Position numbers and translations under genes: made by a program. DNA of 11,048 nucleotides from a virus (Duplodnaviria > Heunggongvirae > Uroviricota > Caudoviricetes): the IMG/VR virus record IMGVR_UViG_3300042519_001716; one strand, written 5' to 3'. The notes under the pieces are model-generated. The model made no database searches and was not told the DNA's origin. It saw nothing but the letters and a program-made list of their open reading frames with translations. Positions 5,388 to 9,371 of this stretch are shown here, piece by piece. Position 1 is the stretch's first letter. Every line of letters starts with the position of its first letter.

Positions 5388-5954
5388 TTAATCTTCCAAC
5401 CTAAATAGACATACACCAACCGCATTGATGTTGTTAGGTATAATATTAAACGCGTTTCTGAATGAACTACCTGTGGTGATGAAATCATCCACAACACATA
5501 TGTTATCACTTAACTCAAAGTCCATATTAAACAGTCCAGTAATACTCCTTCTCTCAGCTTTAGGTACCCCTCTCATTTTAAAAGAATTATCCATCTTCTT
5601 AAACCCGTCTTTAATTGATGGTTTATTAATAACACCCATAATATCATCGTTAATATTTGAAGAGGTTTCCAATGAAACGAGCATATCAGTATTTGCTAGT
5701 TTCGCAACAGAATCAAATCTTTTTTTAAACGTACGCAAAAAATGAACATAGCTTTCTCCGTTTAACTCTAACGTGTTGGACATACCCTTAATAGCCAATA
5801 TAGCTTCTCTATTATTATAATAACCCACATTACCGAATAAAGCATATACTACACGATCACCCACATTGAATTTTCTAATCTTATCATAAGGATTAATCAA
5901 TTTTACACTATTACCATCAATCTCGATCTCCTCAAATATATTAGTTAGTTTCAT
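5388..5954 (-). CDS. Type I phosphoribosyltransferase-domain protein (188 aa)
   Basis: PRPP-binding loop ICVVDDFITTGSSF near the C-terminus, followed by a helix and terminal strand (AVGVCLF). Start moved from 6035 to 5954 (MKLTNIFEE). Confidence 0.8.
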   Translation of the reverse strand: MKLTNIFEEIEIDGNSVKLINPYDKIRKFNVGDRVVYALFGNVGYYNNREAILAIKGMSNTLELNGESYVHFLRTFKKRFDSVAKLANTDMLVSLETSSNINDDIMGVINKPSIKDGFKKMDNSFKMRGVPKAERRSITGLFNMDFELSDNICVVDDFITTGSSFRNAFNIIPNNINAVGVCLFRLED

Positions 5955-5958
5955 ATAG

Positions 5959-5966
5959 TATAAATA
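5959..5966 (-). promoter_or_regulatory. TATTTATA motif, 4 nt before ATG 5954
   Basis: Perfect copy, intergenic, immediately downstream of a minus-strand terminator. Confidence 0.7.
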
Positions 5967-5978
5967 GATAAAGGGCAC

Positions 5979-6011
5979 AAAAAAGCCCCTAAGCACTTTA
6001 TGCGAAGGGGC
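5979..6011 (-). terminator. Minus-strand intrinsic terminator upstream of the late-type block
   Basis: GCCCCT(5985-5990)/AGGGGC(6006-6011) plus an inner GCA/TGC pairing, with a U6 tract on the minus strand (A5979-5984). Confidence 0.65.
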
Positions 6012-6075
6012 GATTATATATGATTCTTTTACCAATTACTCTTTAAAAAATTAAACTGTTTTTTTATATTAGGTT

Positions 6076-6936
6076 ATGGAAAATCAAAATATTAAAAAAA
6101 TTGAAAAAATAAGAAATAAATTAAGACAACGAAACATCCTCCCCAAATATGGTGGTTTTTTAACAGAAGAACAAACAAAAATCTATGAACAATTAAATAG
6201 AGGTGACTTCAGCTTGTGGGAAAAAATAAAAGAAGAAGAACATGCACAAAAACAATACAAGCACGTAAAAAAAGAAAGGAATCTAAAAAAACATAATTAT
6301 TATATCAAATCACAATTAAGAAAACTAGGGGTTTTACCAAAAGTTGGTACACCAATGAACGTAGAGGAAATGGAAATTTGTAATCAAATAGCACAAGGGA
6401 ATTATGAGGTATATAAAAAATATAAAAAATATGGTGATAGTAATGTTGTTATTAAATCTTTTAATTGTACAATCTGTGGAGATGTTGATCCACTGAACTT
6501 TTATCCAACCCATAAAAGCAAATGTAAAAAGTGTAATCTAAAAGAAAAAAAAATAAAATATATAAATGGAGATTTATATGGTAGTTTAGCTAAAAATAAG
6601 GAGTGGAGAAAAGAAAACTTTATTCGACTAAGAGTTATGAATGCTAAACATTCAGCTAAAAGAAAAAATCTTGAATTTACTATTGATGATGAGTTTATAT
6701 ACCAAAGGCTAACAGAACAGGAAAGTAAATGTGCTATAAGTGGTATTGTTCTAACCTTTAATTCGGATGATTGGCATTCTATGTCAATAGATAGAATAGA
6801 TTCAAGCCTTGGTTATACCCCAGATAATATTTTATTGGTTATTAGGTTTCTCAATATAGCGAAGGGGAATAAATCAAATGAGGCTCTGGTTGAAGAGATT
6901 AAATTATGTTATGAGGGAATAATAGCCCACAGCTAA
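6076..6936 (+). CDS. His-Me-finger (HNH/EndoVII-like) endonuclease, probable homing endonuclease, with duplicated N-terminal module and CxxC...CxxC linker
   Basis: C-terminal KCAISG...SIDRIDSSLGYTPDNILLVIRFLNIAK pattern typical of phage free-standing endonucleases. CTIC...CKKC at aa 131-153. Lone plus-strand gene between two minus-strand blocks. Confidence 0.75.
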   Translation: MENQNIKKIEKIRNKLRQRNILPKYGGFLTEEQTKIYEQLNRGDFSLWEKIKEEEHAQKQYKHVKKERNLKKHNYYIKSQLRKLGVLPKVGTPMNVEEMEICNQIAQGNYEVYKKYKKYGDSNVVIKSFNCTICGDVDPLNFYPTHKSKCKKCNLKEKKIKYINGDLYGSLAKNKEWRKENFIRLRVMNAKHSAKRKNLEFTIDDEFIYQRLTEQESKCAISGIVLTFNSDDWHSMSIDRIDSSLGYTPDNILLVIRFLNIAKGNKSNEALVEEIKLCYEGIIAHS

Positions 6937-7060
6937 TTTTTGCCAGAAATTTTTTTTTTGAAACACAGGGTCTTTTGTCACACCAGCTTTTTTTGCCAAA
7001 ATTTTTTTTTTAAAAAGGGCCCTAGTGTTTCCGATTTTAGGTTTTTTCCGGAAAAAAATT
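6930..7060. repeat. Three T-tract/GC-core/A-tract units phased at 53 bp, including a 16-bp palindrome
   Basis: TTTTT-GCCA-GAAA-T10 (core starts 6942), TTTTT-GCCA-AAA-T10 (6995), TTTTT-CCGG-AAAAAAA-TTT (7048). Palindrome TTTTTTCCGGAAAAAA at 7042-7057. Confidence 0.7.
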
Positions 7061-7113
7061 TCTCTCACGGTATTGTCCCCCGTCCCACAAACCGAAAAAA
7101 CCCCTATATAATA

Positions 7114-7147
7114 GGGGATACCTTGGGGGCGGTGGTGGGGGTAGGGG
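7114..7147 (+). other. Canonical G-quadruplex-forming motif
   Basis: GGGG(7114-7117)-ATACCTT-GGGGG(7125-7129)-CGGTGGT-GGGGG(7137-7141)-TA-GGGG(7144-7147). Four tracts of at least 4 G, loops of 7, 7 and 2 nt. Confidence 0.7.
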
Positions 7148-7165
7148 TGCTACCTAACCCCTACC
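7140..7165. terminator. Hairpin overlapping the stop codon of 7154..7567
   Basis: GGTAGGGGT(7140-7148)/ACCCCTACC(7157-7165) 9-bp stem. No clear U-tract, so a terminator role is uncertain. Confidence 0.4.
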
Positions 7166-7567
7166 GAAACATTCACTACCCATACCCCTCTCTATGCTTT
7201 CCGGTGTGGTTAGTTTCCGGTTACACTTACAGCATCTACCCTCGTGCCATATTTCCGTACGGCTGTCTATGATACCCTTCTGCAAGTGGGCGAATATCCA
7301 ACTAAACGCCAGTGCTTGTGGCAGTCCCTTAAACTGACTCTTGGCAGTTTGGTAAAAGCCTCTTTGCTCCGTTAAGCATCCAATGTAGGAATAGTCCGCC
7401 TCATTATTTGAGCCTCTTAAAACTGACACAAAATAGAGGTCGCTATCCTCTGCTTTGCGTACCTTATAAGTAAAGCGGTTTGTAGTGCCAACAAATGTGG
7501 CGGTCGCGTTACCGCCTAAAAGAAACGCGAGTGCTTGGCTTGGTTCGGTGATTTGTCTAGTAGTCAT
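7154..7567 (-). CDS. DUF6011-like phage protein (137 aa) with C-terminal Zn-binding motif
   Basis: Recognised pattern AFLLGGNATATF...RFTYKVRK...YFVSVLRGSNNEADYSYIG...WHEGRCCKCNRKLTTPESIERGMGSEC. Confidence 0.8.
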   Translation of the reverse strand: MTTRQITEPSQALAFLLGGNATATFVGTTNRFTYKVRKAEDSDLYFVSVLRGSNNEADYSYIGCLTEQRGFYQTAKSQFKGLPQALAFSWIFAHLQKGIIDSRTEIWHEGRCCKCNRKLTTPESIERGMGSECFGRG

Positions 7568-7596
7568 TTTAAAGCGATTTAAGGGGTTTAAATTAA

Positions 7597-7619
7597 GGGG
7601 TAGGCTAACTACCTACCCC
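7597..7619. terminator. Intergenic hairpin after 7635..8216
   Basis: GGGGTAGG(7597-7604)/CCTACCCC(7612-7619) perfect 8-bp stem, with an AT-rich tail on the minus strand. Confidence 0.55.
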
Positions 7620-7634
7620 AATGGTTAAAGTGTC

Positions 7635-8216
7635 TTACAACTCAGCGAAAACATCGTAAATTTCGCCATTCAAACTAACCGACCTAATGGAATTTAAGGA
7701 TGGGTTAATTACAGGAATTTGGTCTTGCTTTGCAATACCAAAATCGGACTGCTTTTTACTTGTGTTATCCCTAAAATAAGGCTTAACTTGGTCTAAGGTT
7801 AGCGGTCGCATTTGAGAATCATAATACTCCGCTTCTCTTTGGCAATCTTTGTGCAACATAAATTGTGCGTACAATCTGCGTTGCTCAATAGGTAGATTTA
7901 CATCTGCTCTATGATAAAGAACATTACCGCTTAAATGGTCTGCGTATAAATGCGGTTGCGGTGTCCAATTAGCAAAATCTAGATTTAGTTTTTCTGCTAA
8001 TAATTCTACTGCTCTATCATACTTGCGATTTGCAACAATAGTGTAGGTAGCAAACTTGTAAACAACTCCCCCGAATTGTGCTTTTACTTGCTTACCGCCC
8101 TCTAATGTAGCCTCTGTCATTAAAGCCCAATGGCTAAATGGGTGTCCTTTTACCGCCATTAATAACTCTCTTAATTCAGCTACTGAAATGCGGTTTCTTG
8201 TTTTGTTCTTATTCAT
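7635..8216 (-). CDS. Hypothetical phage protein (193 aa)
   Basis: Long ORF downstream of a host-type promoter. The C-terminal IRSVSLNGEIYDV is loosely reminiscent of small beta-barrel (WYL/Sm-like) ends, but this is not confirmed. Confidence 0.8.
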   Translation of the reverse strand: MNKNKTRNRISVAELRELLMAVKGHPFSHWALMTEATLEGGKQVKAQFGGVVYKFATYTIVANRKYDRAVELLAEKLNLDFANWTPQPHLYADHLSGNVLYHRADVNLPIEQRRLYAQFMLHKDCQREAEYYDSQMRPLTLDQVKPYFRDNTSKKQSDFGIAKQDQIPVINPSLNSIRSVSLNGEIYDVFAEL

Positions 8217-8277
8217 AATGAATCTAAATTAGTGCCTACTTGATAGGGCATCGGCAATCCCTCTTGGTTTGTGTCAA

Positions 8278-8309
8278 CAAAGTACGGAAATAGTTTTCAC
8301 ATACACAAA
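8278..8309 (-). promoter_or_regulatory. Bacteroidota sigma-type promoter (degenerate -7), leftward
   Basis: Minus strand TTTG(8309-8306)-N20-GTACTTTG(8285-8278). TATATTTG(8313-8306) is an alternative perfect -7 box. Confidence 0.55.
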
Positions 8310-8351
8310 TATATTTTTGGTATTATTTTAAATTTATTTTATTTCTGGCAT

Positions 8352-8376
8352 TAATCTATTGAAAATCAATAAGTTA
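8352..8376. promoter_or_regulatory. Interrupted palindrome containing the IHF consensus WATCAANNNNTTR
   Basis: TAA-tc-TATTGA-aaa-TCAATA-ag-TTA. AATCAATAAGTTA (8364-8376) is an exact consensus match, and the opposite strand gives TTTCAATAGATTA (one mismatch). Confidence 0.55.
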
Positions 8377-8417
8377 GCACCGAAAAAAAAACTTAAATAA
8401 TTTTTATATAAATCTTA

Positions 8418-8450
8418 TTTGTTTATTTGGAATAGTTTTATTTAACTTTG
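8418..8450 (+). promoter_or_regulatory. Bacteroidota sigma-type promoter, rightward
   Basis: TTTG(8418-8421)-N21-TAACTTTG(8443-8450), matching -33 TTTG / -7 TAnnTTTG. Confidence 0.75.
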
Positions 8451-8486
8451 CGAAACAATTTTATTTAAACCTAAATTTTATCCATT

Positions 8487-9371
8487 ATGCAAAAGTCAAT
8501 TTTAGAACAAGCGAATTTGAATTGGGCCGTTAAAGGCGAACGATTAGTTACCGCAGAGAGTAACATTGAAACGGATAGCATTGCTATTGTCCGAACGGAT
8601 AATAATGCTATTCTTGGAGTACATGGCAAGGGTTATCATCCTTTGCAGAATTTAGAGATGATGGAAATCCTTGACCGCATTAGTGGTAAGATGGATTTAC
8701 CTTTACACAAGGGCGGTTATTTTGGCGAAGGTCAAAAGGTCTATGTTCAATTAAAGACAAAAGACCAGCGCGTGAACAAAGATATGGTTAAAGGGTATCT
8801 AACTTGTGTGAATAGTTTTGATGGCTCTACCTCTCTTGCGTTTGGCCATAGTAATTTAACTATCTCTTGCCAAAACACATTCTTTGCTAACTATCGCGAG
8901 ATGGCTAACAAAGTGCGTCATACACAAAAGATGCACGAGCGTATCGACTTAATTTGTATGCAGATTGAGGATGTACTACGCGCGGAGGAAAAGATTTTCC
9001 AGCAGATTGTAAAGATGGATAGTGTTTCTATCAACGAGCCTAGTGCCGTATTACTTAAAGCACTTAAATCAAAAGGCTTTGCATCCGTTAAGGATTTGGC
9101 TTTAACTCGCATCCTTAATTTAGAGGGTGAGGAGCGTTTGGCTGACTTGTCTACTTTGTCTACTCGCAAGAAAAATATTCTATCCGATTTGGAGGTGAAT
9201 ATTATGGGTGAGGTGCAAGACAAGGGTAGTAATATCTGGGGGTTGTTCTCAGGTATTACAAAGTACACTACACATCAATTAAAGGGCGATAGCAACGAGA
9301 ACAAATTGTTCGGAGTGTATGGCCGTAGAGAACGCGAGGTGTTCGCAGAATTAGGTCAATTAATTTCTTAA
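8487..9371 (+). CDS. DUF932 family protein (TIGR03299 phage/plasmid-like), 294 aa
   Basis: Recognised pattern LNW.V...AIVRTDNNAILGVHGKGYHPLQN...GG.FGEGQKVYV...GYLTCVNSFDGSTS...CQNT and a C-terminal WGLFSGITKYTTH. Confidence 0.85.
   Translation: MQKSILEQANLNWAVKGERLVTAESNIETDSIAIVRTDNNAILGVHGKGYHPLQNLEMMEILDRISGKMDLPLHKGGYFGEGQKVYVQLKTKDQRVNKDMVKGYLTCVNSFDGSTSLAFGHSNLTISCQNTFFANYREMANKVRHTQKMHERIDLICMQIEDVLRAEEKIFQQIVKMDSVSINEPSAVLLKALKSKGFASVKDLALTRILNLEGEERLADLSTLSTRKKNILSDLEVNIMGEVQDKGSNIWGLFSGITKYTTHQLKGDSNENKLFGVYGRREREVFAELGQLIS

Follow-up and report, generated by a model that had tools for sequence, protein, structure and literature searches.

A lone four-tract G-quadruplex motif in an AT-rich freshwater phage, read as the complement of a transcript-end module at the early/late boundary

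Intrinsic (Rho-independent) terminators of bacteria and phages lie at the ends of operons. They consist of a GC-rich hairpin followed at once by four to six U residues, and their stems carry compensatory changes. A different arrangement is found at the Rho-dependent terminator tR1 of phage lambda, where the rut site is split into rutA and rutB around the boxB hairpin. In T4-type phages, the promoter-early stem-loop (PeSL) cassette junctions are hairpins with GC stems that border optional small early genes.

G-rich tracts have other described roles. The co-transcriptional or hybrid G-quadruplex (G4) of CSB II needs the G-rich sequence to be on the non-template strand (PMC3488243, PMC4176368). 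The vrRNAs of VIPR carry 9–16 tandem YNNGG units, and these repeats are followed by a conserved tail (bioRxiv 10.64898/2026.04.26.720920).

Here we describe a phage locus that resembles each of these systems in part. The window, by which we mean the whole stretch of 11,048 nucleotides that was analysed, comes from an uncultured freshwater phage whose host is probably one of the Bacteroidota. A sequence-only reading of the window had drawn attention to a four-tract quadruplex motif between two hairpins and had proposed for it a function in replication, recombination or termination. Our preferred reading, with a probability of roughly 0.55, is that a GC-clamped module at the early/late boundary ends and insulates transcripts, and that the G-tracts are what this module shows on the complementary strand. 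The features of the locus are as follows.

6076 to 6936, plus strand: inserted homing-type endonuclease gene, phrog_3322, endonuclease VII/HNH-like by PHROG matches
6937 to 7041, no strand: two more A10/T-run units with GC cores, part of a 53-bp array
7042 to 7058, no strand: T-run/CCGG/A-run palindrome, the first unit of the phased A/T array
7066 to 7089, minus strand: invariant G-rich box of the GGGGGGACAATA type, just past the terminator (alignments A1 and A2)
7095 to 7117, minus strand: intrinsic terminator of the leftward early operon, hairpin 7117–7101 and then T6 at 7100–7095
7114 to 7147, plus strand: four-tract G-quadruplex motif, complement of the C-rich 3' UTR
7114 to 7117 (G4), 7125 to 7129 (G5), 7137 to 7141 (G5) and 7144 to 7147 (G4), plus strand: the G-tracts, with loops of 7, 7 and 2
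7118 to 7139, minus strand (mRNA): C-rich, G-poor linker between the hairpins, its composition kept and its sequence free
7140 to 7165, minus strand: stop-codon hairpin with a 9-bp stem, the last three codons (G-R-G) forming its 5' arm and the stop lying in the loop
7154 to 7567, minus strand: DUF6011 / phrog_20259 gene of 137 aa, an early gene, stop TAG at 7156–7154

The motif itself is as it had been described. Read on the plus strand, 7114–7147 is G4-N7-G5-N7-G5-N2-G4, and this falls within the canonical definition of a quadruplex motif (PQS; four G-runs of at least three, loops of 1–7 nt). It is the sole PQS in the 11-kb, 34.5% GC window when both strands are scanned for G-runs of at least three with loops of no more than 7, and four of the window's 14 G-runs of at least four fall inside its 34 bases. 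A PQS of any kind appeared in 43 of 2000 dinucleotide-preserving shuffles of the window. The G4Hunter maximum of 2.56, against a threshold taken as 1.5 or more, exceeded all 2000 shuffles (mean 1.44, largest 2.36). The adjoining plus-strand stretch, 7153–7202, has 23 C against 2 G in 50 nt, a strong C-richness that is due to the G-rich C-terminal codons of the DUF6011 gene, and an antisense RNA would therefore run C-rich, G-rich, C-rich.

Is the motif peculiar to this phage? The same locus was reached in at least 10 related metagenomic lineages, all from uncultured freshwater phages, through the DUF6011 protein (93% and 66–75% identity) and through a DNA pattern on the conserved downstream box. 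The top G4Hunter window in every related locus is the orthologous tract (|2.36–3.04|), and it is the sole site scoring at least 2 in the approximately 190 kb of related loci scanned, which is partly redundant sequence. In L020–L023, representing two lineages, loops of 8–9 nt are needed and the strict PQS pattern fails. The sequence-only reading had named unconserved G-tracts, or many equivalent motifs, as grounds for giving it up; the pattern is kept in the relatives and the motif is single. Cultured phages gave no nucleotide match to the window or to its 234-nt gap among 50,697 phage records, and their DUF6011 and DUF932 protein matches were all below 60% identity, the best being 46% among the matches listed. 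In IMG/VR the exact motif was not found, and one distant protein relative was the only match. The more distant DUF6011 loci L024, L026 and L027 belong to unrelated genomes and do not have the tract.

The orientation of the neighbouring gene is central to how the motif is read. ORF 7154–7567(-) matches Pfam DUF6011 at 4e-11 and phrog_20259 over its full length at 1e-35, its product has 207 homologues, and judged by these matches it is a real gene. The G-rich strand is the template strand of this gene, and the mRNA at the tract is C-rich. The early region has promoter motifs of the Bacteroidota type on its flanks: 8418–8450(+) matches the -33/-7 pattern in full, 8306–8313(-) is a -7 box, and both sit in a divergent region. 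No -7 box was found on either strand between 6527 and 8305, so nothing points to an RNA with the G-rich sequence in the relatives.

On the other side of the tract the situation differs between the window and its relatives. The motif had been placed between convergent genes, downstream of the endonuclease. That is correct for this window, but in most relatives the endonuclease gene is absent from the gap and the next gene is co-directional. The convergent layout is due to the insertion of a homing-type endonuclease that is specific to the window lineage.

The two hairpins that had been proposed to compete with the quadruplex are both present in minimum-energy folds, whether RNA or DNA and on either strand. 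The first, 7101–7117, has a 7-bp stem (CCCCTAT/ATAGGGG) with a 3-nt loop, and G-tract 1 is its 3' arm. The second, 7140–7165, has a 9-bp stem (GGTAGGGGT/ACCCCTACC) with an 8-nt loop; its 5' arm holds tract 4 plus two bases of tract 3. Because tracts 1, 4 and part of 3 are in hairpin arms, the hairpins and the four-tract quadruplex are mutually exclusive, as had been claimed.

Two points about these hairpins had been missed. The stop codon of the DUF6011 gene lies in the loop of hairpin 7140–7165, and hairpin 7117–7101 with its T6 is called an intrinsic terminator on the minus strand by a terminator scan. The terminator stem is 7 bp long with 4 GC pairs and a 3-nt loop, and the T6 adjoins it directly. 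It is co-oriented with the DUF6011 gene and lies 36 nt past the stop codon. The scan of 5800–8800 returned seven terminator-like sites against 2.2 expected, all seven of them on the minus strand, and no plus-strand terminator after the endonuclease gene. The G-tracts are thus the template-strand complement of a 59-nt 3' UTR that comprises the stop-codon hairpin, the C-rich linker, the terminator hairpin and U6. The locus has both sequence features of an intrinsic terminator: the GC-rich stem with its U-tract, and co-orientation with the gene together with compensatory changes.

Those changes come from the relatives. The terminator is kept in all of them, with T4–6, and pairs 5 and 6 of its stem vary between lineages on both sides (T:A to C:G and A:T to C:G), separating the window/L002 type from the other lineages. 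The stop-codon hairpin has one compensatory change, in L023, where GGGGTA/TACCCC has become GGGGCA/TGCCCC (n = 1). In the relatives the first hairpin sits at, or just 3' of, the stop codon. Their folds show a two-tier hairpin with the stop codon in an internal loop, where the first two C-runs are taken up by a coding GGGG and by a second GGGG that follows the stop.

The order of elements is common to all lineages: stop hairpin, C-rich tract, GTAT, terminator hairpin with T4–6, box, palindrome and A/T units. In four of the six lineages the U-tract ends 59 nt from the stop. One lineage (L033, L034 and L044) does not have the DUF6011 gene; its 199-aa gene is the orthologue of window gene 7635–8216, at 49% identity. 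Even so, this lineage still has two C-runs and a self-contained hairpin along with the terminator and the G-box, nearly unchanged. As a separate observation from alignments A1 and A2, the terminator, the GGGGGGACAATACC box and the T-run/CCGG/A-run palindrome (window 7042–7117) are nearly identical where the adjacent protein is only 49% identical, and the non-coding module is far more conserved than the flanking genes.

Between these fixed elements the tract behaves differently. On the gene-sense strand it is 65–81% C and 3–9% G in six lineages, and its sequence is not alignable between lineages; L033 and L034 differ here even though their flanks are nearly identical. When each tract was shuffled, the four-run pattern was retained in 53–95% of trials, so the four-run layout does not go beyond what composition gives, and selection on the run arrangement itself is not demonstrable from these sequences. 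The conserved property is strand-asymmetric C-richness, and the capacity to form a G4 is a consequence of it.

Why should the mRNA be so rich in C? Folds of the sense RNA pair the C-runs with G-runs of the same strand in every lineage. The partners are the end of the coding sequence, the post-stop run, the arm of the terminator and the invariant GGGGGGACAATA box; the terminator C-arm pairs with its own G-arm. On the mRNA strand the runs are ordered G, G, C, C and then C, C, G, G. Two mirror-image hairpin systems therefore stand with their C-arms abutting, and their complement reads as a PQS. The window lacks the post-stop G-run, and its local fold leaves about 15 nt of the tract single-stranded; the free part of the tract is 11–30 nt. 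Since the lineage without DUF6011 keeps two free C-runs with only one obvious partner, and its tract is C-rich in L033 and L034 alike in spite of their different sequences, pairing accounts for much of the C-richness and not for all of it.

The G-box lies on the 3' side of the terminator. Its columns are invariant in alignments A1 and A2, and there is one copy per locus. When the fold is extended past the U-tract, the remaining C-run is predicted to pair with the G-run of the box, enclosing the terminator. The RNAalifold consensus contains this helix, as do nearly all folds of the single lineages. Because the G-box is constant throughout, covariation lends the long-range helix no support. A second near-copy of the box in L039 and L043 was set aside as a chance match, being inside an endonuclease coding region.

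The transcript-end reading would work as follows. Host RNA polymerase would start near 8306 on the minus strand and transcribe a 193-aa gene and then the DUF6011 gene. It would next meet the stop-codon hairpin, the short C-rich linker and the intrinsic terminator, in that order, and most transcripts would end at hairpin 7117–7101 with U6 (7095–7100), ahead of the late-gene block. The upstream G-runs, at the coding end and after the stop, would pair with the first C-runs, and the arms of the terminator would pair together. In read-through RNA the remaining C-run would pair with the invariant G-run past the U-tract, locking the RNA. The stop-codon hairpin and the GC clamps would stabilise the 3' end and keep the upstream G-runs off the terminator stem. 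By this arrangement the four C-runs come to lie next to one another, and their complement is a textbook quadruplex motif. We infer that selection has acted on termination and on protection of the 3' end, and that the excess of C is there for RNA pairing and insulation and not for a quadruplex. The module shares with known intrinsic terminators all the properties given at the outset. Unlike them, it has in addition a hairpin embedding the stop codon and a C-rich linker of constrained composition on the 5' side, and on the 3' side an invariant G-box that is predicted to pair back across the terminator.

Other readings of the same sequences are less probable. The one that survives best, unlikely as we hold it to be, acts at the level of DNA: the tract, the terminator palindrome, the G-box and the phased A/T units would together form a protein-bound or cruciform-prone control region, which could activate the late genes, serve as an origin, or be the target or junction at which homing or cassette exchange takes place. 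Spacing is one argument for it. The T-run of the palindrome starts +99 from the first base of the stop codon in five of the seven lineages, and the A-run/T-run junctions are 52–55 bp apart in all lineages, with TTCCRGAA-like cores. The near identity of the module between lineages whose neighbouring protein is 49% identical also fits, as do the three endonuclease genes of one family inserted in the gap and the similar GGGGTAG-type hairpins that border the DUF6011 cassette. Against this, the G-box is not repeated elsewhere in the loci, no candidate binding protein emerged, and the strong excess of C over G on one strand is unexpected for a duplex binding site. The version of this reading in which the module is a physical end (cos) is disfavoured: 8 of the 22 contigs end within 110 nt after the gene, but the two sides share no position. 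The number of A/T units ranges from one to at least five among the relatives, and L042 has a tandem expansion 3' of the G-box. Readings of the array cores as sigma-54-like or sigma-70-like promoters were rejected, the spacing being inconsistent by eye.

We consider it quite unlikely that the tract is a functional G-quadruplex switch, in which the G-rich strand would leave its hairpins under negative supercoiling or strand separation and fold into a G4. Such a structure, possibly with an i-motif opposite, would block polymerases, mark a site of recombination or replication, or stop antisense transcripts such as the endonuclease mRNA, as at CSB II. The standing of the tract as the strongest G4Hunter site in every related locus, and the only one of at least 2 in some 190 kb, speaks for a switch. 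The pattern of two free and two hairpin-held runs recurs across lineages even with a different upstream gene, the endonuclease gene has no plus-strand terminator 3' of it, and the site is a junction of gene-content variation. The counter-arguments are as follows. The only conserved transcription unit is read from the G-rich strand and so yields neither an RNA G4 nor a hybrid G4; the run pattern is within what composition gives; the 8–9 nt loops of two lineages break the strict PQS; and the endonuclease, being specific to one lineage, is not what the tract evolved for.

The comparison with known quadruplex elements turns on the same point. Like mitochondrial CSB II, the locus has a cluster of G-runs in AT-rich DNA beside a transcript end. 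In CSB II the G-rich strand has to be the non-template strand, whereas here it is the template of the conserved DUF6011 operon, and the orientation found at CSB II would apply only to the transcript of the window-specific endonuclease. The analogy that had been drawn with CSB II and the pilE G4 is not supported for this reason, and the proposed replication or recombination signalling found no evidence in the analysis of the locus and its relatives. In the relatives the sequence drifts yet G4 capacity persists, even where the upstream gene has been lost. Less probable again is a clade of AT-rich freshwater phages with a true hairpin-versus-G4 (or i-motif) DNA switch on the template strand of the early/late boundary, which might stop polymerases from one direction only, or might serve for structure-specific loading or recombination and in that way couple replication to late expression.

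The least probable reading, for which we see little chance, is a Rho-loading (rut-like) patch in the C-rich, G-poor 3' UTR that would back up the terminator against entry into the late genes: over 30 nt (19 C against 2 G) and over 50 nt alike, no minus-strand stretch has a larger C-over-G excess than the tract, which also has 17–20 YC dinucleotides, and Rho is documented to cooperate with intrinsic terminators at 3' UTRs (bioRxiv 10.1101/2022.07.21.500918), but it is outside the top five at the classical 78-nt scale and lacks a C>G bubble of about that length, most of its C-runs are predicted to be paired in the relatives whereas rut sites are described as unstructured, and the stretch left free is short. 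The locus and the rut sites of the tR1 type have in common a short C-rich, G-poor RNA beside a hairpin, 3' of a coding region. The patch here is far shorter than the usual 60–80 nt, it is largely paired in the folds, and a full intrinsic terminator lies 3' of it.

Several further candidates were rejected. The tract resembles VIPR guide RNA genes in being a strand-asymmetric intergenic phage tract, G-rich on one strand, beside a hairpin; the longest tandem YNNGG run anywhere in these sequences is three units, and none is at the tract. Protein coding across the tract (ORF 6940–7272+ in the window and ORFs in L002 and L010) gave no family match, and is also ruled out by tract lengths that differ by 3 and 11 nt among lineages. 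Searches for tRNA, tmRNA and Rfam families at the site gave no match.

Taken together, the observation of the sequence-only reading is borne out, and its interpretation only in part; the tract most likely belongs to a terminator module, of a known type in a new phage clade. If this ordinary reading is true, a textbook G4 motif has arisen here as a by-product. In AT-rich phages that build all of their hairpin stems from G4/C4 runs, mirror-image hairpin systems can align four C-runs. Surveys of G4 motifs in phages should check the strand, the orientation of genes and nearby terminators before function is inferred. The module has an interest of its own, as it is better conserved than the flanking proteins, stands at the early/late boundary and appears to be a hotspot for the insertion of homing endonucleases and cassettes, and its tract is constrained in composition and not in sequence.

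The DUF6011 gene acts as an optional cassette, missing in the L033/L034/L044 lineage. Where it is present it is bordered on both sides by similar hairpins of the GGGGTAG...CTACCCC type (window 7597–7619 and 7140–7165), a pattern that suggests exchange of cassettes at repeated hairpins with GC stems. In the L002 type, a 65-aa ORF between the 193-aa gene and the DUF6011 gene is optional as well. Such repeated GC-stem hairpins at the borders of optional genes, with gene content varying exactly there, are shared with the PeSL junctions; the hairpins here differ in that no promoter motif was found attached to them, and exchange here is a candidate process.

Assemblies break at the module far above chance, with ends in L005, L006, L007, L012, L013, L016, L019 and L021 and starts in L030 and L031. 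Contigs coming from the left stop at the G-box or just after it, and those from the right begin within an A10 run about 58 nt beyond. A single base after the G-run is the shared end of three contigs, which belong to two lineages and three projects. The breaks point to assembly trouble in low-complexity or structured DNA and not to a defined terminus. In contigs L010–L017, which come from sister samples and are otherwise identical, the first C-run 3' of the stop has lengths from C10 to C13; this is either real slippage or homopolymer sequencing error.

Three different endonuclease genes of the phrog_3322 family are present in the same gap, at 6076–6936(+) in the window, L018:3587–3838(-) and L043:11514–12023(-). 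Relative to the flanking genes, one has the sense and two have the antisense orientation. From these insertions, the gap beside the conserved module looks like a homing-endonuclease hotspot. After the endonuclease gene of the window, 5952–6075(-) contains one or more hairpins with a T-run at about 5971–6010, followed by TATTTATA at 5966–5959(-) and, 4 nt away, an ATG at 5954. The late gene probably starts at 5954 and not at the TTG at 6035. Homology to the endonuclease-free relatives picks up again at this TATTTATA-ATG junction.
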